The position numbers were made by a program, and so were the translations under genes. A DNA stretch of 40,159 nucleotides from Kayfunavirus MT1B1P3: sequence record OZ035815.1. One strand, written 5' to 3'. This document shows, in pieces, positions 30-29,395 of the stretch. How positions within the stretch are numbered: position 1 is the first letter of the stretch; every line of letters starts with the position of its first letter. The notes below the pieces were generated by a model. It saw nothing but the letters and a program-made list of their open reading frames with translations, was not told where the DNA came from and did no database searches.

Positions 30-293
30 ATGACGCAGATGGACTTAGAGAAGTTCCTCTTAATGCTAGATACTGAACGTGCTCGACTCATGCTGCAAGA
101 CCTGCGGGATGACACTAAGCGTTCACCTCAGCTCTACAACGCCATTGAGAAGCTGCTTGCTCGTCACAACTTTGTGTTAAGCAAGGTGTCTGTTGACGAG
201 AAGACGCTCGCTGATATGGAGGCCCTGAACGCAGAGTACGATAAGGTGCTCTCAGCTACAGAAGATAATGACACCGGGTATGGTGTTCAATAA
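30..293 (+). CDS. 18: DNA packaging protein A / small terminase subunit (T7 gp18-like)
   Basis: 87-aa ORF with SD (aaaggagg) upstream; recalled similarity to T7 gp18 (FLxMLDT...RSPQLYNAI.KLL.RH.F); position immediately before 18.5 and 19. Confidence 0.8.
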   Translation: MTQMDLEKFLLMLDTERARLMLQDLRDDTKRSPQLYNAIEKLLARHNFVLSKVSVDEKTLADMEALNAEYDKVLSATEDNDTGYGVQ

Positions 294-295
294 GT

Positions 296-345
296 GTTAG
301 ACTCAAGGTCATTACTATATGTAGTGGCCTTTATGGTTAACACTA
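296..345 (+). promoter_or_regulatory. putative RNase III processing site (R18.5-like)
   Basis: motif gactcaaggtcat...gtggcctttatgGtta; near-identical motif recurs at 9741 and 16941 and resembles the T7 R1.1 site from memory. Confidence 0.35.
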
Positions 346-394
346 ACTAGTGGAGGCGACTCTACGTGAAATCTGATAAACCGGGAGGGCAACT

Positions 395-844: not shown

Positions 845-2604
845 GTAAAGATTTAGTGGCGCGTCAGGCGCTAATGACTGCCCGTATGAAGGCAGACTTC
901 GTGTTCTTCCTGTTCGTCCTGTGGAAAGCCCTGTCACTACCAGTCCCGACTCGCTGTCAGATTGACATGGCGAAGAAACTATCGGCTGGGGACAACAGGC
1001 GTTTCATCCTACAGGCGTTCCGTGGTATCGGGAAGTCATTCATAACGTGCGCATTCGTGGTATGGAAACTGTGGAACAACCCAGACTTGAAGTTCATGAT
1101 TGTGTCGGCCTCAAAGGAACGAGCAGATGCGAACTCCATATTCATCAAGCGAATCATCGACCTCATGCCTCAGCTTCAGGAACTTAAACCTAAGCAGGGG
1201 CAGCGAGATGCTGTTATCAGCTTCGACGTTGGACCAGCCAAGCCAGATCACTCACCTTCGGTTAAGTCCGTTGGTATCACTGGTCAGTTGACTGGTAGTC
1301 GTGCTGACATCCTGATTGCCGATGACGTGGAGGTTCCGAACAACTCAGCGACTCAGGCTGCACGAGACCGTCTGTCAGAGCTTGTGAAAGAGTTCGACGC
1401 TATCCTGAAGCCGGGAGGTACAATCATCTATCTGGGTACTCCTCAGAACGAGATGACCTTGTATCGTGAGCTGGAAGGTCGTGGATATACCACTACCATC
1501 TGGCCCGCTCGCTACCCACGCGATAAGAAGGACTGGCAGTCTTACGGAGACCGTCTGGCTCCTATGCTTCAGGCAGAGCTTGAAGAGGACCCTGAGTCCT
1601 TCTACTGGCGTCCTACCGATGAAGTACGATTCGATGATACGGACCTGAAGGAACGTGAGCTGTCCTATGGTAAAGCTGGCTTCGCTCTACAATTCATGCT
1701 TAACCCTAACCTGAGTGATGCCGAGAAGTACCCTCTGAAGCTCCGTGACCTTATCGTAGCAGACTTGGACCCAGCGTCTAGCCCAATGGTCTACCAATGG
1801 CTTCCTAACCCTCAGAACAAGCGTGAGGACGTTCCTAACGTTGGACTCATGGGTGACTCATACCACACGTATCAGACTGTAGGTTCTGCCTTCAGTTCGT
1901 ACACCCAGAAGATTCTGGTCATTGACCCTAGTGGTCGTGGTAAGGATGAAACAGGTTATGCGGTACTGTACCAGCTAAACGGCTACATCTTCGCTATGGA
2001 AGTTGGCGGTATGCGAGGTGGCTATGAAGACTCTACGCTGGAAGCCTTGGCTAAGATTGGTCGTAAGTGGAAGGTAAACGAATACGTCATTGAGGGTAAC
2101 TTCGGTGATGGTATGTACCTTGAGCTATTCAAGCCTGTAGCTTCCCGTATTCATCCTGCTGCTGTAACTGAAGTGAAGAGTAAGGGTCAGAAGGAACTAC
2201 GCATCTGTGACGTTCTGGAGCCTATCATGGGGTCTCACCGACTTATCGTCAACGCTGCTGCTATCGTCCAAGATTACCAGTCTGCCTCTGATAAGGATGG
2301 TGTTCGTAACCCTATCTATTCTCTCTTCTACCAGATGACACGTATCTCTCGTGAACGTGGAGCATTGGCACACGATGACCGACTTGATGCGCTGGCTATC
2401 GGTGTACAGTTCTTCGTTGAGTCTATGGCGAAGGATGCCAACAAAGGCGAACGTGAAGTCACTGAGGAGTGGCTGGAGGAACAGATGGAGAACCCACGGA
2501 AAGGCTTCGAGTCCATCCACACGGAGTTCTGGGACAATGGGGTCCGGGTAACTCACGATACGGACGACGAGCTGGGACTAGGGTCCTACGTTACGTTCCA
2601 CTAG
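841..2604 (+). CDS. 19: terminase large subunit (T7 gp19-like)
   Basis: 587-aa ORF; strong recalled similarity to T7 gp19 ([83 protein letters not shown]); TTG start at 841 has SD aaggagg 7 nt upstream; alternative ATG at 874. Confidence 0.95.
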
Positions 2605-2700
2605 CTGAATGAATAACTATAGGCGAAAACTGAATTAATAAGCAGTTAGTAACCTATAGTTACTACCAGTCTAACCTACTGTTTTACAAGGAGTTTGGAC

Positions 2701-2721
2701 TTAACTATCACTATAGGGAAG
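2701..2721 (+). promoter_or_regulatory. phage RNAP promoter (phiOR-like, after gene 19)
   Basis: ttaactatcactatagggaag matches the in-window promoter consensus; same position as T7 phiOR. Confidence 0.6.
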
Positions 2722-2901
2722 ACCCCCGGTTACTTATAGTATTACTGTAGTGAATATACATATGCAGACTTTATGCAAGACCTTAGGAGGCAGACTCCGA
2801 GTTCTTACCTAAGGCTTGCACCGATGGAAGGAGGGTGATATTAATCATAATCCCTCCAATACAGATAGTCACCGACCATAGATACAGGAGGTATGTAGCA
2901 T

Positions 2902-3060
2902 ATGGCAAAGACCAAAGCTGTACTTAAAGCTCTGGCGACCAATCGAGCTACATACAGGTTTCTTGCTGCTGTTCTACTTGCTGCTGGCGTTACTGCTGGA
3001 AGTCAGTGGGTCGGGTGGGTCGAGACTCTCGTATGTTCTCTGGTGTCTCAGTGTAATTAA
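2902..3060 (+). CDS. 19.5: small protein gp19.5-like
   Basis: 52-aa ORF translated by hand (MAKTKAVLKALATNRATYRFLAAVLLAAGVTAGSQWVGWVETLVCSLVSQCN); SD ggagg upstream; position and TYRFL motif resemble T7 gp19.5; below the ORF-track size cutoff. Confidence 0.55.
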   Translation: MAKTKAVLKALATNRATYRFLAAVLLAAGVTAGSQWVGWVETLVCSLVSQCN

Positions 3061-3093
3061 CGCAATCATGGTAACGATTCATGAGCGGAAGAC

Positions 3094-3136
3094 CTAAGGT
3101 CAGTACGTGGATAAAGACCCACTCTACTGACCTTAG
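3094..3136. repeat. perfect 12-bp inverted repeat (ctaaggtcagta / tactgaccttag) with 19-nt loop
   Basis: direct reading of sequence; lies between gene 19.5 and the inferred genome right end. Confidence 0.6.
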
Positions 3137-3299
3137 CTACTGTAGTCAAGGACTTTAGGTAACACCTTAAGAGAAGCTCACTTAGGGTCATCCTACTTAT
3201 TGGTCTATCCTAGTGTCGCCTGACCTACGGTCCTTGACCTACAGTGGCTGTGGCCTACAGTAGTGACGATGAGTTTTGGACCAAAAGTTTGAGACCACA

Positions 3300-3535
3300 T
3301 CTCACAGTTCAAGAACCTCAAGTCTCCCCATAGGCCCTCTTTAAGTCCAGACCAAAGGCCCTACCCGTTACTACTCCTTGCAGTCACAGCCAGTCTGTCA
3401 TAAGGTTGGACCGATGGTCAGGACTTCAGGTCAACGATAGGTCTAGGCTATGGCTTATGGAAGGACGATAGGTAGAGGCTATAGGTCTTCTTTGAGTCTC
3501 TATCTGTATAGTGTTATAGTATAACATTACGTCCT
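3300..3535. other. inferred physical genome left end and collapsed terminal repeat
   Basis: tctcacagttcaagaacctcaagtctccccatagg at 3300 resembles the recalled T7 left-end sequence (TCTCACAGTGTACGGACCTAAAGTTCCCCCATAGG); flanked by cctacag-type short repeats on both sides, as in the T7 concatemer junction; exact boundaries not determinable. Confidence 0.4.
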
Positions 3536-3538
3536 ACA

Positions 3539-3662
3539 CCTACAGTCTCACTAACCTACAGTCTCACTAACCTACAGTCTCACTAACCTACAGTCTCACT
3601 AACCTACAGTCTCACTAACCTACAGTCTCACTAACCTACAGTCTCACTAACCTACAGTCTCA
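3539..3662. repeat. tandem array of a 16-bp unit (cctacagtctcactaa), 7 full copies plus one partial
   Basis: counted directly: units at 3539, 3555, 3571, 3587, 3603, 3619, 3635 and a partial at 3651-3662; analogous in position to the T7 short-repeat array next to the terminal repeat. Confidence 0.9.
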
Positions 3663-3812
3663 ACCATAAGACACCAACACCTACAGTCATAGATCTACAG
3701 TTACTAGACACAGAGCTATAGACTTAAGGTCCAAGACATGTTAGTCAAAGACTATATCCTCTTACACCATGAGGCCGACGATAGCTTAATCAGTATTATT
3801 TCAAATTACCTA

Positions 3813-3841
3813 TTGACTATAGGTCAAGGATATGGCCTAAT
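3813..3841 (+). promoter_or_regulatory. candidate host sigma70 early promoter (A1-like)
   Basis: TTGACT -35, 17-bp spacer, cctaat -10; about 510 bp from inferred left end, like T7 A1. Confidence 0.3.
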
Positions 3842-3952
3842 AGCTTCCGTCAACACGACACGGCAACAACCGGATAGTGAAGACGCCGGTCCGGTCCGGT
3901 TAAGTAGTCAGCCTGTAAGACATACGAACAACAGGCAACCGACAGAAAGTAG

Positions 3953-3982
3953 TTGACAAGAAGTATATAATTAAAGTATTAT
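3953..3982 (+). promoter_or_regulatory. candidate host sigma70 early promoter (A2-like)
   Basis: TTGACA -35, 18-bp spacer, TATTAT -10. Confidence 0.4.
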
Positions 3983-4221
3983 GAATCTAAAGCAGTAAGA
4001 CGCCACCACGGAATTGGTAGCAGGTACACTCTAACCGCCTCACTAAGAGTAAATTGAGGGGCCGGGCTTCACCGAGTGAAGAAGGTCTGATTGTCGGATA
4101 CTAAGTTACTACCTATAGCGCGGTAACAGAGAACGTTGGGAACTACGCAATACCCCGAGTTGGACAGCCAACAATGCTCTTTAACAATCTGGATAAACTC
4201 TTAATGTACGCAGATAGCGAC

Positions 4222-4277
4222 TAACTACAGGGCCTTTGAGTCTACATCTGAAGGCCCTGACTGATAGTCACTAACTT
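4222..4277 (+). promoter_or_regulatory. putative early-mRNA processing hairpin (RNase III-like)
   Basis: inverted repeat agggcctt...aaggccct followed by ctgactgatagtcactaac, a motif repeated upstream of the next early genes. Confidence 0.3.
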
Positions 4278-4282
4278 AACGG

Positions 4283-4537
4283 ATGAACACTATGAAACAC
4301 TTAAGCACAATCACTAATCACAATGAAGTATTCGTGAACACTAAAGGTTATGCGTGGATTCAGCTTAAAGAGATGACAGGAGCGCGTCACCGTGTGGTAG
4401 TGCGCAAGGTCTCAAGCAAGCCGTTCAGCAACTACAGCATAGATACTGTGCGCATAGACAACGAGACCTACCTGATAGATTCGCAGATAACCGTGAGTCC
4501 TACAGCGGGCGTCTCAGCTCCTTATTTCGCTAACTGA
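4283..4537 (+). CDS. hypothetical early protein (basic, 84 aa)
   Basis: first ORF after the host-promoter region; no similarity recognised; T7 has no gene before 0.3. Confidence 0.45.
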   Translation: MNTMKHLSTITNHNEVFVNTKGYAWIQLKEMTGARHRVVVRKVSSKPFSNYSIDTVRIDNETYLIDSQITVSPTAGVSAPYFAN

Positions 4538-4610
4538 GAGTGATTAACTACAGGTCGTTAGACTTATAGCGGCCTGACTGATAGTCACTAACAACTGAGA
4601 GGATATAACT

Positions 4611-5141
4611 ATGGAACGTAACGCTAACGCATACTATGAGCTGCTGGCTGCAACCGTTGAGCTGTTCAATGAGCGTATTCAGTGCGACGAAATAGCTGAA
4701 GGCGATGACTACAGTGATGCGCTGCATGAGGTCGTAGACGGTAATGTTCCGCATTATTACCACGAGATTTACACGGTGATGGCTGCTGATGGTATTGACA
4801 ATGAGTTCGAAGACTCTGGGCTGATGCCTGAGACCAAGGACGTAACGCGTATACTACAAGCTCGCATCTATGAGGCACTGTATAACGATGTGTCTAATAG
4901 CTCTGAGGTGGTCTGGTTTGAGGCTGAAGAGGAAGACGAAAAGGCTGAAGAGGAGGACGAAAAGGCTGAATATTGGGTAGTTGACACTAGAACAGGCGAG
5001 ATAATTGAGGCAGCTGTATCACTTTGCGAGGCTATTGCATGTGCAAAAGAACTCTATGAGGAAGGTTTTCACATGCAGGTCGAAGACATCAACGATAACG
5101 TAGTGTTCGATCCTGAGGCTGCTGAGGAGGACTGCGAGTGA
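4611..5141 (+). CDS. 0.3: Ocr-like DNA-mimic anti-restriction protein with C-terminal extension (T7 gp0.3-like)
   Basis: strong recalled similarity to T7 Ocr (VPHYY..I..VMA..GID.EFEDSGLMP.TKDV.RILQARIYE); 176 aa versus about 117 in T7; very acidic; SD gagagga upstream. Confidence 0.85.
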   Translation: MERNANAYYELLAATVELFNERIQCDEIAEGDDYSDALHEVVDGNVPHYYHEIYTVMAADGIDNEFEDSGLMPETKDVTRILQARIYEALYNDVSNSSEVVWFEAEEEDEKAEEEDEKAEYWVVDTRTGEIIEAAVSLCEAIACAKELYEEGFHMQVEDINDNVVFDPEAAEEDCE

Positions 5142-5308
5142 TGGTAACTTATGGTCTCTGCCAGCACCACGTCACCAACGCCCGGCTTATGGTCAAGACC
5201 GGGAGATTAAACCACGAGGAGTCTATGCGCCTCTTGAAAGTGGTCTACAGGAGACGCAAGCGCATACACGACAGCCTACACGCTGAGGACAAGAAATATT
5301 TACCATAG
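5141..5308 (+). CDS. hypothetical small early protein (55 aa)
   Basis: hand-translated ORF; ATG overlaps the Ocr stop (tgATGg), suggesting translational coupling; basic C-terminus; below ORF-track cutoff. Confidence 0.3.
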   Translation: MVTYGLCQHHVTNARLMVKTGRLNHEESMRLLKVVYRRRKRIHDSLHAEDKKYLP

Positions 5309-5410
5309 CCTGACCATAACGCTGACAGGTGGGTACTGAGTGTTAAACTACAGGTCATCTACATGGTGGCCTGAGTGATTACCACTTGATAACTACAGAA
5401 GGAAAGAATA

Positions 5411-5758
5411 ATGACTGCTAAAACTCGCAATGTATTCTCGGTAGCATTTAAACTCAACGTTGTTAACTACTACACCTCTCTGCCTGAGGGAGTTATGGAT
5501 AGGGTGACTGAAACCGCCCAAAAGTTCGGGGTGGGAACGAGTTCGGTGAAGCGCTGGTTTACTCAGTATATCCGTGGTGAGCTTGCCATGGAAAACGCCA
5601 TTGCGGTGAGTCGCCGGCCTTCTAAGGTAATAACAGGTGATATTTACCACCTTGCAGGAAAGGACTTCAAGTCCAAAGAGGAGGCGATACGCTATGCGGT
5701 TGAGCTTGCTGGTGGGCTGACTGTAAGCAAGATGACCACTGTATCGGTGGAAGTGTAA
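5411..5758 (+). CDS. early protein with N-terminal transposase-like helix-turn-helix (IS3 OrfA-like HTH)
   Basis: N-terminus FSVAFKLNVVNYY...VTETAQKFGVGTSSVKRWFTQY resembles the IS3/IS911-family OrfA HTH pattern (FSxEFK...VA..xGV....L..W.KQY) from memory. Confidence 0.5.
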   Translation: MTAKTRNVFSVAFKLNVVNYYTSLPEGVMDRVTETAQKFGVGTSSVKRWFTQYIRGELAMENAIAVSRRPSKVITGDIYHLAGKDFKSKEEAIRYAVELAGGLTVSKMTTVSVEV

Positions 5759-5847
5759 CCGTGTAAGGCCTAGCTGAGTGATAGACGAGAGGTCATCGAC
5801 TGATAGGTGGCCTCAAAGATTACCACTTAAATTGATAGAGGTTAACT

Positions 5848-5937
5848 ATGAGTGTTGGACATTTGGTATGCTTATCTCCGGTCATCTTTCTGATAGCTTG
5901 GGGGATATACGACTGTATTAAACGGAAATCACTATGA
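5848..5937 (+). CDS. possible small hydrophobic peptide (29 aa)
   Basis: hand-translated MSVGHLVCLSPVIFLIAWGIYDCIKRKSL; stop overlaps next start (ATGA); speculative. Confidence 0.2.
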   Translation: MSVGHLVCLSPVIFLIAWGIYDCIKRKSL

Positions 5938-6131
5938 GTCTTGCACTATTGATAGCCATAGGCTATGGACTTATCGCCTACGTGCTGGTGAGAGACATCA
6001 ATAAAGCGCATAGAGTATACAAATTAAACTATGTACGTCTGGGCCGCTGGACTGTACGTCAACCTAACGGACGATTCATGCGCAACTTAGCGAACGTCTG
6101 GGATATAGCAACTATTGGGAGCAAACTGTAA
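5934..6131 (+). CDS. hypothetical early protein with N-terminal transmembrane-like segment
   Basis: 65-aa ORF, N-terminus LALLIAIGYGLIAYVLV hydrophobic; end overlaps next start (taATG). Confidence 0.4.
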   Translation: MSLALLIAIGYGLIAYVLVRDINKAHRVYKLNYVRLGRWTVRQPNGRFMRNLANVWDIATIGSKL

Positions 6132-6391
6132 TGAAAACAGTATACATTAACAAGCCATCTATCCGTAGCCGTATAGAGCAAATACAGCGTGACGAGTTCT
6201 TACATCGCCGCATGAAGGCTGAGGGCCATGAGTACGAACTGATGTGTCTGGCGTATGGTGGACGACCGATCACTGACGATGGTAAACTTTTAGTCTCAGG
6301 CTGGAAGGCGATGGACCAACGGTCAACCATCAAGCACACGACCAATGGTGACTTCAGCCATCTCCACGCTAACCAACTGATATGCAAGTGA
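6131..6391 (+). CDS. hypothetical early protein (86 aa)
   Basis: ORF with SD gggag 9 nt upstream; occupies the slot just upstream of gene 1 where T7 has the 0.7 kinase, but far too small to be a kinase. Confidence 0.45.
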   Translation: MKTVYINKPSIRSRIEQIQRDEFLHRRMKAEGHEYELMCLAYGGRPITDDGKLLVSGWKAMDQRSTIKHTTNGDFSHLHANQLICK

Positions 6392-6398
6392 TTATGAC

Positions 6399-6419
6399 TT
6401 AACTATCACTTTAGGACTA
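6399..6419 (+). promoter_or_regulatory. degenerate phage-promoter-like sequence upstream of gene 1
   Basis: ttaactatcactttaggac: matches the consensus except A to T at -3; function uncertain. Confidence 0.2.
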
Positions 6420-6488
6420 AAGGTCTAAGACTACAAGTGAAAGACCAAAGAGACTCTAAGTGAAAGACTAATAACAAGGACTTTAAGT

Positions 6489-9170
6489 ATGAGCGTCATC
6501 TCTATTGATAAACACGACTTCTCTGATGTGTCGAACGCCATTGAGCCGTTTAACCTGCTGGCTGACCACTACGGGAAGGACCTTGCAGTCAAGCAGCTTC
6601 AGCTTGAGCATGAGGCATACACTGAAGGCGAGCGACGTTTCATCAAAAACCTTGAGCGACAGACTGAGCGCGGGGAACTGGCAGACAATCAGGTCGCCAA
6701 GCCTTTGATGCAGACTCTGGTTCCTAAGATTGCGCAAGCCGTCAGGGAGTGGTATGAAGGTCCAGACGGGAAGCTTTCAACCTCTCGTCCTAGCGTAGCG
6801 TTCACCATGTTAAGCACCGAAGAGAAGGCCGTCAAGGACCGCTCTCTGCGTATCCCTTGCGAGTCTGCTGCGGTCATCATACTGAAGGTCATACTCTCCA
6901 AGCTGGTAAAGCCTGAAGGGATACCGATTACACCGATGGCCTCCGCGATAGGTCGCACACTTGAGGACGAAATCCGCTTCGGTCGCATCCGTGACAAAGA
7001 GAAAGAGCACTTCAAGAAGGCGATAGCTGATAACCTGAATAAGCGGGCCGGGGCGTCCTACAAGAAAGCCTACATGCAAGCGGTCGAGACATCCATGCTG
7101 GAGCAAGGCCAACTGGAAGATGCGTGGGGAACTTGGAGTCCTACAGAGGCTGTCCACGTTGGCATCAAGATGCTTGAGATTGTCATCCAGTCAACACAAC
7201 TGGTCGAGCTTAAGCGGTACGGTGCTGGCAATGCAGCGGCTGACGTAGAGATGGTCCACCTGTCAGACTTCTGGGTCAAGAAGATGGCACAACGAGGATT
7301 CAGCCTTGCGGGTATAGCTCCAGTCTACCAGCCTTGCGTCGTTCCACCTAAGCCGTGGACTGGTGTCGTAGGTGGTGGGTACTGGGCCAAAGGTCGCAGA
7401 CCGCTACCCCTGATTCGCTTAGGGTCTAAATCAGCGGTGGCACGTTATGAAGACGTATACATGCCTGAAGTCTATGACGCTGTGAATATCATCCAGAATA
7501 CACCTTGGAAAGTGAACAAGAAGGTACTGGACGTGGTGAACATGGTCGAGAAGTTGAACAACACGCCTATTGATGACATCCCTCAGATGGAGCCACTGAA
7601 GCCTGAAGACTATGCGGGTGAGACTGAGGAGGAACTCAAGGCATGGAAGAAGGCTGCTGCTGGTATCTATCGCCGCGAGAAGGCCCGACAGTCGCGAAGA
7701 TTGTCACTGAGCTTTATCGTTAACCAAGCGAACAAGTTCTCTCAGTTCAAGGCCATCTGGTTCCCGTACAACATGGACTGGCGTGGGCGCGTCTACGCTG
7801 TTCCGATGTTCAACCCTCAGGGTAACGACATGCAGAAAGGTCTCCTTACTCTGGCAGTCGGTAAGCCTATTGGTGCTGACGGTTTCAAATGGCTGAAGGT
7901 CCATGGTGCAAACTGCGCGGGTGTTGATAAAGTCACCTTCGAGGAGCGCATCAAGTGGGTGGAAGACAACCACGACAACATTATGGCTGCTGCTAAGGCA
8001 CCGATGGATAGCATTGAGTGGTGGGGCAAGTTAGACTCTCCGTTCTGCTTCCTTGCGTTCTGCTTCGAGTATGCTGGTGTAATGCACCACGGATTGTCTT
8101 ACTCCTGCTCATTACCGATAGCGTTCGATGGGTCATGCTCAGGGATTCAGCACTTTAGCGCGATGCTTCGTGATCACATAGGTGGACATGCAGTAAACCT
8201 AACGCCTTCCGGTAAGGTCCAAGACATCTACCGAATCGTGTCCGACCGCATTGAGGAAGAGCTTAAAGTCCTGCTGGTTAACGGCACAGACAACGAGATG
8301 GTAACTCACGAGGACAAGAAAACTGGTGAGATTACCGAACGCCTCAAGCTGGGGACACGAGAGCTGGCCCGGCAGTGGCTGACTTACGGCATGTCACGCA
8401 AGGTCACTAAGCGTTCAGTAATGACTCTGGCCTATGGGTCGAAAGAGTACGGCTTCGCAGACCAAGTTTATGAGGACATCGTGATGCCGGCGATTGACTC
8501 AGGGTCTGGCGCTATGTTCACCGAACCAAGCCAAGCGTCCCGCTTCATGGCTAAGATGATTTGGGAAGCTGTGAGCGTGACCGTAGTTGCTGCGGTTGAC
8601 GCGATGAAGTGGCTTCAGGGTGCTGCCAAGCTGCTGGCTGCTGAAGTGAAGGACAAGAAGACTGGAGAAATACTGAAGCCTTGCCTTCCGGTACACTGGG
8701 TAACACCTGATGGTTTCCCGGTCTGGCAGGAATACCGCAAGAAGGATACCACTCGTCTGAATCTGATGTTCTTAGGGTCATTCAACCTTCAGCCTACGGT
8801 CAACAAAGGCACGAAGAAAGAGCTGGACAAGCACAAGCAGGAGTCAGGCATTAGCCCGAACTTCGTCCACTCACAAGATGGTAGCCACCTACGCAAGACT
8901 GTAGTCCACACGCACCGCAAGTATGGCGTGATGTCCTTCGCAGTGATTCACGATAGCTTCGGGACCATCCCGGCTGACGCTGAGTATCTGTTCCGTGGCG
9001 TCCGTGAGACGATGGTCGAGACCTACCGCGATAACGATGTGCTGCTTGACTTCTACGAGCAGTTTGAATACCAGCTTCACGAGAGCCAGCGCGACAAGTT
9101 GCCTGAGCTTCCGAAGAAAGGTAAACTGAATATCGAAGACATCTTGTCTTCAGACTTTGCATTCGCGTAA
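6489..9170 (+). CDS. 1: DNA-directed RNA polymerase, single-subunit (T7 gp1-like)
   Basis: 893-aa ORF; conserved T7 RNAP blocks recognised (TLAYGSKEYGF, PNFVHSQDGSHLRKTVV, VIHDSFGT, final FAFA); size matches T7 RNAP (883 aa). Confidence 0.97.
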   Translation: MSVISIDKHDFSDVSNAIEPFNLLADHYGKDLAVKQLQLEHEAYTEGERRFIKNLERQTERGELADNQVAKPLMQTLVPKIAQAVREWYEGPDGKLSTSRPSVAFTMLSTEEKAVKDRSLRIPCESAAVIILKVILSKLVKPEGIPITPMASAIGRTLEDEIRFGRIRDKEKEHFKKAIADNLNKRAGASYKKAYMQAVETSMLEQGQLEDAWGTWSPTEAVHVGIKMLEIVIQSTQLVELKRYGAGNAAADVEMVHLSDFWVKKMAQRGFSLAGIAPVYQPCVVPPKPWTGVVGGGYWAKGRRPLPLIRLGSKSAVARYEDVYMPEVYDAVNIIQNTPWKVNKKVLDVVNMVEKLNNTPIDDIPQMEPLKPEDYAGETEEELKAWKKAAAGIYRREKARQSRRLSLSFIVNQANKFSQFKAIWFPYNMDWRGRVYAVPMFNPQGNDMQKGLLTLAVGKPIGADGFKWLKVHGANCAGVDKVTFEERIKWVEDNHDNIMAAAKAPMDSIEWWGKLDSPFCFLAFCFEYAGVMHHGLSYSCSLPIAFDGSCSGIQHFSAMLRDHIGGHAVNLTPSGKVQDIYRIVSDRIEEELKVLLVNGTDNEMVTHEDKKTGEITERLKLGTRELARQWLTYGMSRKVTKRSVMTLAYGSKEYGFADQVYEDIVMPAIDSGSGAMFTEPSQASRFMAKMIWEAVSVTVVAAVDAMKWLQGAAKLLAAEVKDKKTGEILKPCLPVHWVTPDGFPVWQEYRKKDTTRLNLMFLGSFNLQPTVNKGTKKELDKHKQESGISPNFVHSQDGSHLRKTVVHTHRKYGVMSFAVIHDSFGTIPADAEYLFRGVRETMVETYRDNDVLLDFYEQFEYQLHESQRDKLPELPKKGKLNIEDILSSDFAFA

Positions 9171-9720: not shown

Positions 9721-9740
9721 CTAAACTATCACTATAGGAT
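9721..9740 (+). promoter_or_regulatory. phage RNAP promoter (phi1.1-like)
   Basis: ctaaactatcactataggat matches consensus. Confidence 0.65.
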
Positions 9741-9785
9741 TAGACTCAAGGTCATGACTCAAAGTCGTGGCCTTCATGATTAACC
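9741..9785 (+). promoter_or_regulatory. putative RNase III site (R1.1-like)
   Basis: tagactcaaggtcat...gtggccttcatgattaacc; resembles T7 R1.1 (aaggtcaatgagtggcctttatgattgacctt) from memory. Confidence 0.4.
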
Positions 9786-9815
9786 TTAAATAAACACTAC
9801 TGGAGATTTAACCAC

Positions 9816-14778: not shown

Positions 14779-14994
14779 ATGATTAAAATTATCGAATTTC
14801 TTGGTCGTCTGGTGGTGCGTGGGTATCGTCGTGCTGCGGTACTGGAACGAAAGGTAGAAAAGAAGAATGCGGACGGTGCGGCTGATGCTGCTGCTCTGGC
14901 TGACAAGCTGACCATCGCGTCACTGGAAGCTGGAATGAAGGCTCGTCAGGCTGATACCAAAGCTGACCAGTTGGCTCAGTTCTTCAAAGCCTAA
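14779..14994 (+). CDS. hypothetical protein (71 aa)
   Basis: ORF with SD (taagggag) upstream; Ala/Lys-rich; not similar to T7 gp3.8. Confidence 0.4.
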   Translation: MIKIIEFLGRLVVRGYRRAAVLERKVEKKNADGAADAAALADKLTIASLEAGMKARQADTKADQLAQFFKA

Positions 14995-15012
14995 ACTATC
15001 ACCTTAGGGATG
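14991..15012 (+). promoter_or_regulatory. phage RNAP promoter variant before gene 4
   Basis: ctaaactatcacCTtagggatg: two substitutions (-4, -3) relative to consensus; followed by hairpin gggaca...tgtccc. Confidence 0.4.
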
Positions 15013-15059
15013 GGACAATTAGTCCTGTCCCTTTGTTCGCATTTGTGATTAAGGAGTGA

Positions 15060-16939
<1,880 letters not shown>

Positions 16940-16940
16940 G

Positions 16941-16985
16941 TCTAGACTCAAGGTCATTCACAGCGAGTGGCCTTTATGATTAGAC
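16941..16985 (+). promoter_or_regulatory. putative RNase III site upstream of DNA polymerase
   Basis: tctagactcaaggtcat...agtggcctttatgattagac, third copy of the conserved motif. Confidence 0.4.
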
Positions 16986-17002
16986 TAAACGGAGGATTAA
17001 CC

Positions 17003-19174
17003 ATGTTTGACCTTAAGAGTATCTGGGGTTCTGACATCGAGACCAACGGTCTCCTTGATACAGTCTCCCAGTTTCACTGTGGGGTCCTGATTAACGCCGA
17101 GTCGAATGAGACCCTTAAGTATGGGGTAGCTCCGATGGTCGGTATCGTCGGTGGCTTCAAAGAGTATGTTCATAAAGTGGAAGAGATTGCCGCATCACCT
17201 GATGGTATGCTGGTATTCCATAACGGTATCAACTATGACGTCCCTGCTATAGACAAGCTGAAACGTCTGTACTTTGGGAAACGCTTTAACTTCCCGAAAC
17301 ACAAGATGATTGATACCTTGGTGCTGGGCCGCTTGATGTATCCAAACATTAAGTTCTCAGACATGGGCGCAGTGAAATCTGGTCGTCTGCCACCTAGTAT
17401 GATGGGACGTCAGTCTCTTGAGGCTTGGGGCTATCGTCTCGGTGAGATGAAGGGTGAGTACAAACACGATTACGTTGCCAAATGCAAGGCTGAAGGTATC
17501 GAATATAAGGCTGGGGACGAATGGTTGTTCCCGTCTCAGGAGATGCTGGACTATAACGTTCAAGACGTTGTGGTCACACTGGCGTTGTTCAAGAAGTTCC
17601 TGACTGACAAGTATTACTTCCAGTCTGAACAGTTCGCTTTCGACCAGATTTATGCGTTGCGTCTGGAACACGATGCTGCGTGGACCTGTGCGAAGATGGA
17701 GCGTAACGGCTATCCGATGAACACCGAGATGGTCGAAGGCTTATATCGTGAACTCACCGTCAAACGTGCAGAGTTGCTGGACAAGCTGCGTTCGACTTTC
17801 GGTAGCTGGTACGCACCAAAGGGCGGAAAGGAGTTCTTCAAGCACCCACGTACAGGCAAGGACCTTCCGAAGTATCCGAGAGTCGTGTATCCTAAGGTCG
17901 GTGGCATCTTTAAGAAGCCGAAGAACAAAGCTCAACGCTTAGGTCTTGAACCTTGTGAACGCGATACGCGAGACACGATGGAGGGAGCACCATTCACACC
18001 TATCACTTACGTTGAGTTCAATCCGGGAAGCGGGGACCACTTAGCGAAAGTTCTGATGGAGCGTGGCTGGGAGCCTGTGGACTTCACTGACACCGGGAAA
18101 CCTGTGGTCGATGACGAGACGTTAGAACACGTTAAGTTGCCAGACGAAGAGGCTCAGGCTTGCGTAGAGCTGGTCCGTGAGTATCTGGTAGTCCAGAAGC
18201 GCATCGGTCAGGCTGCTGAAGGTAAGAACGCATGGTTGAAACTTGTAGGTCCAGACGGACGTATGCACGGTTCAATAAACCCATGCGGGGCAGTAACCGG
18301 ACGTGCGACTCACAGTTCACCAAACATGGCTCAAGTCCCGGCTAACGGTGCTCCATACGGTGAGACTTGCCGTGGTGCTTTCGGTGCAGCTTGGAACAAG
18401 ACGGATGGTAAGCCAGACCCTTGGATTCAAGTAGGCGTGGATGCTTCAGGTCTTGAGCTTCGTTGTCTAGGGAACCGAGCGGCTCCGTTTGATGGTGGAG
18501 ACTATGCGAAGACTGTGGTCGAAGGGGACATACACTGGGCCAACGCAGTAAACGCTGGGTTAGCACCTAACGTCCCACGCGACAAGTCGAGCCACGACCA
18601 TGATGCTTTCCGTAATAACGCTAAGACGTTCATCTATGCGTTCCTGTATGGTGCAGGGGCCGCGAAGATTGGACTGATAGTTGGCGGTGGTAAGAAGGAA
18701 GGTTCAGCTCTCATGAAGAAATTCATTGAGGGCACACCAGCCATCAAGGACCTCAGGGAAGCTGTGAGTGATACGTTAATCTCAGACTCTAAGTGGGTGG
18801 ACGGAGAGAACATCGTCAAGTGGAAACGCCGTTGGTTGCGTGGACTTGATGGTCGGCGTATCCACATCCGGTCTCCACACTCAGCACTTAACGCCTTACT
18901 TCAAGGCGATGGTGCGGTAGTCTGTAAGCACTGGATTGTCGAGACTGAACGTATGCTCGAAGATGCCGGGTATGTTCACGGCTGGGAAGGTGACTTTGCG
19001 TACATGGCTTGGGTTCACGATGAGCTACAGATTGCGTGTCGTACTCAGGAGATTGCCGAAGAAGTCGTCAAGATTGCTCAACTTGCTATGCGTAAGGTGG
19101 GTGAGTTCTATAACTTTAAATGTGTCCTTGATACCGAAGGTAAGATTGGACCAACGTGGAAGGAGTGTCACTAA
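17003..19174 (+). CDS. 5: DNA polymerase (T7 gp5-like, family A with 3'-5' exonuclease)
   Basis: strong recalled similarity to T7 gp5 (SDIE.N.L, HNG..YDVPA, EAWGYRLGEMKGEYK, MDYNVQDVVVT, KYPR...PKVGGIFKKPKNKAQR, DASGLELRCL, DNAKTFIY.FLYGAG, FAYMAWVHDE); ATG at 17003 preferred (SD ggagg); ORF track starts at upstream GTG 16967. Confidence 0.95.
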   Translation: MFDLKSIWGSDIETNGLLDTVSQFHCGVLINAESNETLKYGVAPMVGIVGGFKEYVHKVEEIAASPDGMLVFHNGINYDVPAIDKLKRLYFGKRFNFPKHKMIDTLVLGRLMYPNIKFSDMGAVKSGRLPPSMMGRQSLEAWGYRLGEMKGEYKHDYVAKCKAEGIEYKAGDEWLFPSQEMLDYNVQDVVVTLALFKKFLTDKYYFQSEQFAFDQIYALRLEHDAAWTCAKMERNGYPMNTEMVEGLYRELTVKRAELLDKLRSTFGSWYAPKGGKEFFKHPRTGKDLPKYPRVVYPKVGGIFKKPKNKAQRLGLEPCERDTRDTMEGAPFTPITYVEFNPGSGDHLAKVLMERGWEPVDFTDTGKPVVDDETLEHVKLPDEEAQACVELVREYLVVQKRIGQAAEGKNAWLKLVGPDGRMHGSINPCGAVTGRATHSSPNMAQVPANGAPYGETCRGAFGAAWNKTDGKPDPWIQVGVDASGLELRCLGNRAAPFDGGDYAKTVVEGDIHWANAVNAGLAPNVPRDKSSHDHDAFRNNAKTFIYAFLYGAGAAKIGLIVGGGKKEGSALMKKFIEGTPAIKDLREAVSDTLISDSKWVDGENIVKWKRRWLRGLDGRRIHIRSPHSALNALLQGDGAVVCKHWIVETERMLEDAGYVHGWEGDFAYMAWVHDELQIACRTQEIAEEVVKIAQLAMRKVGEFYNFKCVLDTEGKIGPTWKECH

Positions 19175-29319: not shown

Positions 29320-29344
29320 CTTATTGAAGGGCCTATAGATTTAC

Positions 29345-29365
29345 CTTAACTATCACTATAGGGAC
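29345..29365 (+). promoter_or_regulatory. phage RNAP promoter (phi13-like)
   Basis: cttaactatcactatagggac; sits inside a 12-bp inverted repeat. Confidence 0.65.
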
Positions 29366-29395
29366 TATAGGCCCTTAAGGTTATAAGGAGACTTT

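Follow-up and report, generated by a model that had tools for sequence, protein, structure and literature searches.

Four successive intergenic gaps in the early region of Kayfunavirus MT1B1P3 carry a recurrent motif, which raises the question of whether these segments are equivalent to the sites at which host RNase III processes the early mRNA of T7 or serve some other purpose between the early genes. We analysed the whole sequence record OZ035815.1 (40,159 nt, hereafter the window), of which bases 3700-6500 match Escherichia phage Mt1B1_P3 (MT496969.1), classified as Kayfunavirus (K1F-like), Studiervirinae, Autographiviridae, at 100% identity and coliphage K1F at 93% identity over ~70% of their length. 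The four segments are very probably intercistronic processing signals of host RNase III, belonging to the family of T7 R0.3, R0.5, R1, R1.1, R4.7, and R18.5, a reading for which homology, structure, covariation, and genomic context all speak.

The genome is circularly permuted in the window, and the layout of its genes places sites 1 to 4, as the elements in the four segments are numbered here, within the early, host-transcribed part of a T7-like genome (Table 1). The sigma-70-type promoter matched upstream of them would drive a polycistronic early transcript carrying all four.

A recurrent motif between early genes

The preliminary description had proposed one motif shared by four intergenic segments, and the motif was found at the places it gave. 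AACTACAGG occurs at 4223-4231, 4546-4554, and 5346-5354, and G(G/C)CCTGA(C/G)TGAT at 4254-4265, 4571-4582, and 5368-5379. Segment 4, which reads GACGAGAGG...GGCCTCAAAGATTACCACTT, fits the literal pattern only loosely, and its motif-like 'ggcctagctgagtgat' at 5768-5783 consists of flanking sequence together with the 5' arm of the lower stem described below. The composite AACTACAGG-N15-40-GSCCTGASTGAT was matched twice, against 0.00 matches expected from shuffled sequence, and the third composite copy has a spacer slightly shorter than 15 nt. The fixed-spacing pattern AGGNC-N16-GGCCT had no match in the window because the loop lengths vary. A search with GGCCTGASTGAT allowing two mismatches returned 16 matches against 6.7 expected and was set aside as too loose to identify members outside the early region.

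The inverted repeat noticed in segment 1, AGGGCCTT / AAGGCCCT, lies at 4229-4236 and 4251-4258 and corresponds to the upper stem of a larger element. As originally drawn, the segments covered this upper stem and the 3' half of the element; the complete elements begin 7-10 nt further upstream since the 5' arm of the lower stem had been overlooked. The family also extends beyond 4222-5830, with three further copies elsewhere in the window (Table 1).

A common two-stem fold

Alignment and folding of the four segments gave a single two-stem structure common to all, in keeping with the hairpins that had been suspected. The 9-bp lower stem (e.g., GAGUGAUUA with UAGUCACU) is followed by an asymmetric internal loop, with 4 nt on the 5' side (ACUA or ACGA) and 5 nt on the 3' side (ACUGA, AGUGA, or AAAGA), and by an upper stem of 10-11 bp (CAGGUC... 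with ...GGCCUG). Segment 4 has the same architecture despite its departing furthest from the literal pattern. Single-sequence folding gave z-scores of -5.5, -4.5, and -2.7 for segments 1 to 3, and site 1 folds with -25.6 kcal/mol, while segment 4 reached a z-score of only -1.4 in a 96-nt context and was weak alone in longer context. Every site lies in an intergenic gap, 15-50 nt before a start codon. The region upstream of gene 1 (6385-6495) had no significant fold (z -0.62) and no canonical site.

Early gene content around these sites varies among relatives. The 115-aa ORF at 5411-5758, between sites 3 and 4, matched no PHROG family and is absent from several relatives, with alignment breaks at 5387 and 5774-5776. 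Two related loci, L012 and L018, have a hybrid site whose 5' side is that of site 1 and whose 3' side is the flank of site 2 together with the ocr leader.

Table 1. Candidate RNase III-type sites and neighbouring features of the window; site scores and E-values are from the T7-trained covariance model (model R1).
Feature	Position	Strand	Score	Lower stem	Internal loop (5' / 3')	Upper stem	Context
Site before spanin gene (T7 R18.5 equivalent)	292-345 (match 289-348)	+	55.9 bits, E 4.5e-12; fold z -4.9				Between gene 18-like ORF (30-293) and Rz-like spanin gene (395-844, family assignment)
Terminase gene	841-2604
Genome-end region	~2600-3700
Sigma-70-type early promoter	3953-3982	+	11/12, consensus match only				TTGACA-18-TATTAT
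Site 1	4215-4273	+	34.7 bits, E 2.4e-6	4215-4223 / 4265-4273	ACUA 4224-4227 / ACUGA 4260-4264	4228-4238 / 4249-4259 (apical loop 4239-4248)	Before gp0.2-like gene (ATG 4283)
Site 2 (positional equivalent of T7 R0.3)	4538-4590	+	41.7 bits, E 3.1e-8	4538-4546 / 4582-4590	ACUA 4547-4550 / ACUGA 4577-4581	4551-4561 / 4566-4576	Before ocr homologue (ATG 4611)
Ocr (gene 0.3) homologue	4611-5141						Family assignment
Site 3	5338-5387	+	50.9 bits, E 9.9e-11	5338-5346 / 5379-5387	ACUA 5347-5350 / AGUGA 5374-5378	5351-5361 / 5363-5373	Before 115-aa ORF (ATG 5411)
Site 4	5776-5828	+	35.5 bits, E 1.4e-6	5776-5784 / 5820-5828	ACGA 5785-5788 / AAAGA 5815-5819	5789-5799 / 5804-5814	Before 29-aa ORF (ATG 5848) and the small-ORF cluster leading into gene 1
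Single-subunit RNA polymerase gene	6489-9170
Site downstream of RNA polymerase gene	9735-9788 (match 9732-9791)	+	46.3 bits, E 1.8e-9; fold z -3.9	5' arm formed by phage promoter-like sequence 9723-9740			Following ATG 9816
Site before DNA polymerase gene (positional analogue of T7 R4.7)	16937-16988 (match 16934-16991)	+	50.5 bits, E 1.3e-10; fold z -3.4				Directly before DNA polymerase start (ATG 17003)

Reciprocal model searches of the window and T7

Model R1 was trained on seven T7 sites only, at positions that we take to be the RNase III sites reportedly mapped by Dunn & Studier 1983; the only checks on these coordinates were the hairpin present at each one and the names of the genes. R3.8 and R13 were left out of the training set, being of different architecture, as was R6.5, for which no such hairpin was found at the coordinate first assumed (18852), which was wrong. 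The two-stem hairpin was present at all seven of the positions used, and the aligned T7 sites themselves covary (92.5% paired, with double changes at 11 pairs). Scanned with filters off against both strands of the window, model R1 gave exactly seven matches, all of them to the + strand and scoring 34.7-55.9 bits (E 2.4e-6 to 4.5e-12). The four segments are all among them, and the next-best match scored 16 bits (E 0.24).

The reverse search gave a corresponding result. Trained only on the seven sites of the window, model R2 recovered R0.5, R1.1, R0.3, R18.5, R4.7, and R1 from the T7 genome (E 3.6e-9 to 7.6e-4), with R1.3 matched weakly (E 0.55). Model R2 also matched T7 18499-18577, directly before gene 6.5, at E <= 7.6e-4. 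By its position and fit to the model this interval is R6.5 and, having been in no training set, provides an unplanned positive control. Promoter phi6.5 is embedded in the apical part of the interval, which agrees with the published placement of the phi6.5 start ahead of the point at which R6.5 is cut (PMC6938266).

The likeness can also be followed by eye, the T7 intergenic regions before genes 0.3, 0.5, and 1 being visibly the same element. Site 4 is nearest to T7 R0.5: the latter reads ctgagtgatagactcaaggtcgc...gtggcctttatgattatcactt and the former ctgagtgatagacgagaggtcatc...gtggcctcaaagattaccactt, with ctgagtgatagac..aggtc....gtggcct....gatta.cactt common to both. Site 3 is nearest in sequence to T7 R1, with which it has cttacaggtcatct...ggtggcctga in common. 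The preliminary description had suggested hairpins equivalent to the T7 early intergenic sites, made of a different sequence family. Homology and structure lend strong support to the equivalence, whereas the notion of a different family has to be abandoned: the T7-only model matches the four segments at E 2.4e-6 to 9.9e-11, and the sites correspond to T7 R1 and R0.5 base by base in alignment. Judged by this homology, the sites are ordinary members of the classical T7 element.

Selection on the sense-strand RNA structure

The structure of these RNAs is under selection. A structure-blind MAFFT alignment of the seven window sites, folded with RNAalifold, gave stems of 9 bp and 11 bp separated by a 4/5 loop, and 12 of the 20 pairs were kept through changes on both sides. 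For a wider sample, 80 related T7-like loci were fetched by searching with the RNA polymerase protein, and both strands (777 kb of sequence) were scanned with model R1, which gave 227 matches at E <= 0.01, every one of them on the coding strand. In an alignment of 83 sites from Kayfunavirus relatives and the window (A2), 94.1% of pair cells were paired, compared with 21-45% when partners were slid, and double changes were found at 13 of 19 pairs, pair counts that are somewhat inflated because A2 was fitted to the model structure. The covariation score of A2 was 0.59, compared with 0.22 in shuffles. The compensatory series among orthologues are plain in the raw rows too: at site 4, AGGUCAUC/GGUGGCCU is replaced by AGGCCACU/AGUGGUCU and by AGACCGCU/AGUGGUCU, and at site 1, CAGGGCC/GGCCCUG is replaced by CAGGACC/GGUCCUG and by AAGAGAC/GUCUCUU.

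These data bear on whether the repeats could act mainly as DNA, as recombination or module-boundary sites or as protein-binding sites flanking early-gene cassettes, with folding incidental. Cassette insertion and deletion junctions among relatives do fall inside the sites, L012 and L018 have one hybrid site and lack the gene at 4283-4537, and 31 of 165 BLAST segment ends lie within the sites ±15 nt, compared with 19.7 expected. Recombination is, however, expected to arise incidentally from any repeat that is dispersed and is compatible with an RNA function, and we give almost no credence to a mainly DNA-level role given the restriction of all matches to the sense strand and the way in which G·U pairs and compensatory changes keep pairing in the sense RNA only. 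Several conserved pairs are G·U or U·G (e.g., U-G at columns 21/77 and 25/73), and since these form only in the sense RNA, model R1 scores on the reverse strand are low, at ~14 bits or less.

A secondary role in recombination is a separate matter. The modest enrichment of segment ends at the sites suggests that they may serve early-gene cassettes as points of recombination. In K1F-like phages, the dispersed RNase III sites might thereby also act as patches of homology for the gain, loss, or swap of such cassettes, each of which would comprise one small host-takeover gene and one site, a tentative proposal that we think rather unlikely to hold. In its favour are the hybrid site of relatives without the gene at 4283-4537 and the variable presence of the 115-aa ORF between sites 3 and 4.

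Covariation and strand bias are evidence of structural selection and not of cleavage, and the sites might be conserved sense-strand RNA elements that act uncleaved, either by regulating translation through the binding of RNase III or another protein or by passively blocking exonucleases. Their internal-loop sequences are unlike the commonest T7 form, and changes in the R1.1 internal loop can uncouple RNase III binding from cleavage. We nevertheless consider uncleaved action very unlikely: their scores are those of full-length members of the cleaved T7 family, the cleaved T7 R1 carries the same CAGG...CCUGA variant, and nothing points to a different binding partner.

Annotation of the sites

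Rfam at gathering thresholds returned no match across the whole window, and RNase III sites are absent from the T7 feature-table entries listed (NC_001604, V01146). Relatives of site 3 were found in 147 phage records and, among those listed, the feature under the match was 'none' or a hypothetical protein. In the closely related vB_EcoA_ASO2B (MZ726794, 99.6% identical), the equivalents of sites 2 to 4 are labelled 'rho-independent terminator', found with WebGeSTer. According to these labels, the sites would attenuate early transcription between genes.

The sites do resemble intrinsic terminators in being stable, GC-containing intergenic hairpins. They differ from them in that no U tract follows any site, the 3' flanks being GACUGAUAGUCACUAAC, GACTGATAGTCACTAAC, and similar, and the MZ726794 labels are therefore unsupported. 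A terminator scan of 3600-6600 reported none of the four sites, and termination leaves unexplained the conserved lower stem and the 4/5 loop, both of which match T7 RNase III sites. Three to four serial terminators before the essential RNA polymerase gene would, moreover, presumably block phage development. Attenuation by rho-independent termination is thus scarcely credible.

On the homology described above, the sites belong to a long-known family and had so far gone unannotated as such, and the annotation of Kayfunavirus genomes can be corrected where these hairpins are unlabelled, lie under spurious 'hypothetical protein' calls, or are called terminators. The two covariance models indicate that a simple profile finds the whole family across T7-like phages.

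Predicted processing of the early transcript

If the sites are processed by RNase III, host RNA polymerase starting from early promoters near 3950 would produce a single long early transcript through gene 1, in which the RNA between cistrons would fold into an irregular duplex of ~20 bp. A host RNase III dimer would bind this duplex and, owing to the asymmetric internal loop, would cut the 3' strand only, within the 5-nt loop. Aligned to T7, the predicted cuts fall after 4262 (site 1), 4579 (site 2), 5376 (site 3), and 5817 (site 4), leaving predicted leaders of 20, 31, 34, and 30 nt, respectively, to the following start codon. The corresponding T7 leaders at R0.3, R0.5, and R1 are presumably 34, 27, and 32 nt, calculated from presumed cut positions and annotated gene starts. 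Each upstream mRNA would keep a stable 3'-terminal hairpin that would protect it from 3' exonucleases, while each downstream mRNA would begin 20-34 nt ahead of its start codon with its ribosome-binding region released from the lower stem. It is from homology to T7 that we infer cleavage, its exact positions, and the effects on stability and translation.

The 60-nt T7 R1.1 RNA is structured and its internal loop is asymmetric (4-nt/5-nt); E. coli RNase III makes one primary cut in it, in vivo and in vitro, that gives 47-nt and 13-nt products (PMC6121014). An upstream mRNA is stabilised when one cut leaves its 3' end folded (PMC6993053). RNase III processes the polycistronic RNAs of T7, and the host of the present phage, E. 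coli, is the species whose enzyme was shown to cut T7 sites (PMC6938266). Hosts without RNase III still support the growth of T7 (PMC6938266), and hence the sites are perhaps of little importance to fitness. As the internal loops are unlike the commonest T7 form (ACUC / UAUGA), the reactivity of the early sites could also differ from that in T7. A full-text search of the literature on RNase III in K1F or Kayfunavirus found nothing relevant. The sites leave the understanding of RNase III processing unchanged and supply predicted early-gene mRNA boundaries for a phage used in gut-colonisation studies.

Comparison with known processing sites

Dunn & Studier reportedly described in 1983 the T7 sites R0.3, R0.5, R1, R1.1, R1.3, R4.7, R6.5, and R18.5, of which R1.1 has become a standard RNase III substrate. 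Some features set the window apart from T7. In contrast to T7, it has no canonical site directly upstream of gene 1, and thus no R1 by position, and has an additional site before the gp0.2-like gene, which T7 lacks. The ORF list of the early region contains no ORF long enough for the gp0.7 kinase, which in T7 reportedly stimulates RNase III. The base of the upper stem in the window early sites is the variant CAGG...CCUG(A/C), unlike the commonest T7 form CUCAAGG...CCUUUAUGA, although T7 R1 has this variant too.

Two further hairpins of the window have counterparts among the T7 sites of other architecture. The hairpin at 15004-15035 has a 3' flank (TCCCTTTGTTCGCATT) identical to that of T7 R3.8, and that at 29327-29378 has a phage promoter within it, like T7 R13. 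Unlike canonical sites, both lack the 4/5 loop, and both are missed by the two models.

The features shared with T7 extend from position to sequence. Positional equivalents of T7 R0.3, R1.1, R4.7, and R18.5 are present in the window, and at 9735-9788 a promoter-like sequence supplies the 5' arm, like phi1.1A at T7 R1.1. The host species is the same, the covariance models match reciprocally, and placement is on the sense strand between cistrons, 20-35 nt before start codons. The window sites and the canonical T7 sites have in common the core A(A/C)AGGUC...GGCCU(U/G), the lower-stem arms GAGUGAU.. / ..AUCACU, and the two-helix architecture with its 4-nt/5-nt internal loop.

Early-gene cassettes and the sites between them

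Across Kayfunavirus relatives, early-gene cassettes were variably present or absent, with junctions falling inside the predicted RNase III sites (window 4275-4573 and 5387-5776). Two related T7-like loci without the gp0.2-like gene, L012 (2072-2185) and L018 (1356-1470), had a single hybrid site combining the 5' part of site 1, the first early hairpin, with the 3' flank of site 2; ORF 5411-5758 was absent from L009, L013, and L022. BLAST segment ends fell within sites, allowing ±15 nt, in 31 of 165 cases vs 19.7 expected. In some relatives, the upper stem of the site 1 orthologue has an apical ~23-nt insertion that forms an extra small hairpin, recalling T7 R6.5 (T7 genome, 18499-18577), where promoter phi6.5 occupies the apical region.

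The equivalents of sites 2 to 4 are annotated as rho-independent terminators in MZ726794.1 (L003; vB_EcoA_ASO2B, 99.6% identical), and no U tract was found after any of the three labeled features.

Small early ORFs and flanking repeats

ORF 5848-5937, which is below the usual ORF cut-offs, would encode a hydrophobic 29-aa peptide, MSVGHLVCLSPVIFLIAWGIYDCIKRKSL, and overlaps the start of the following ORF (ATGA). Neither this ORF nor the 115-aa ORF 5411-5758 matched a PHROG family. From the early promoters up to gene 1 (window 3700-6488), no ORF exceeds 176 aa, and the phage therefore lacks a gp0.7-type protein kinase. The T7 gp0.7 kinase has been reported to stimulate RNase III.

Adjoining the genome-end region, approximately eight tandem copies of a 16-bp unit, CTCACTAACCTACAGT, occupy window ~3541-3662, recalling the short repeat arrays that flank the T7 terminal repeats, and further CCTACAGT-like copies lie at ~3225-3265. 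The CTACAG core of the repeat unit also occurs in the early RNase III sites, at their 5' loop, possibly by chance.

Predicted sites beyond the early region and related features (L015 to L026, related T7-like loci)
Feature	Position	Strand	Remark
Canonical T7-type RNase III site (predicted)	289-348	+	Positional equivalent of T7 R18.5
Canonical T7-type RNase III site (predicted)	9732-9791	+	Positional equivalent of T7 phi1.1/R1.1
Canonical T7-type RNase III site (predicted)	16934-16991	+	Positional equivalent of T7 R4.7
R3.8-like hairpin	14993-15035 (region including promoter-like sequence)	+	3' flank TCCCTTTGTTCGCATT
R13-like hairpin	29327-29378	+	Encloses promoter 29347-29364
"Rho-independent terminator" features	MZ726794.1: 1060-1095, 1860-1892, 2298-2333		Equivalents of sites 2-4
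Site 1 orthologues with ~23-nt insertion	L015:818-905, L017:727-813, L024:785-871, L025:832-919, L026:713-800

Comparison with T7 sites

In T7, R1 immediately precedes the RNA polymerase gene, whereas the window had no canonical RNase III site at that place (6392-6488). The same interval showed no significant fold (z -0.62); it contained a repeated CTAAGTGAAAGAC-like element and, at 6400-6417, a degenerate phage-promoter-like sequence with three mismatches.

Beyond the early region, the 5' arm of the phi1.1/R1.1 equivalent is supplied by the phage promoter-like sequence 9723-9740, and the DNA polymerase ATG (17003) lies closely downstream of the R4.7 equivalent. By their likeness to T7, the two remaining hairpins are predicted analogues of non-canonical T7 RNase III sites: the R3.8-like hairpin, preceded by a promoter-like sequence, has a 3' flank identical to that of R3.8, and its R13-like counterpart surrounds a promoter just as T7 R13 encloses phi13.
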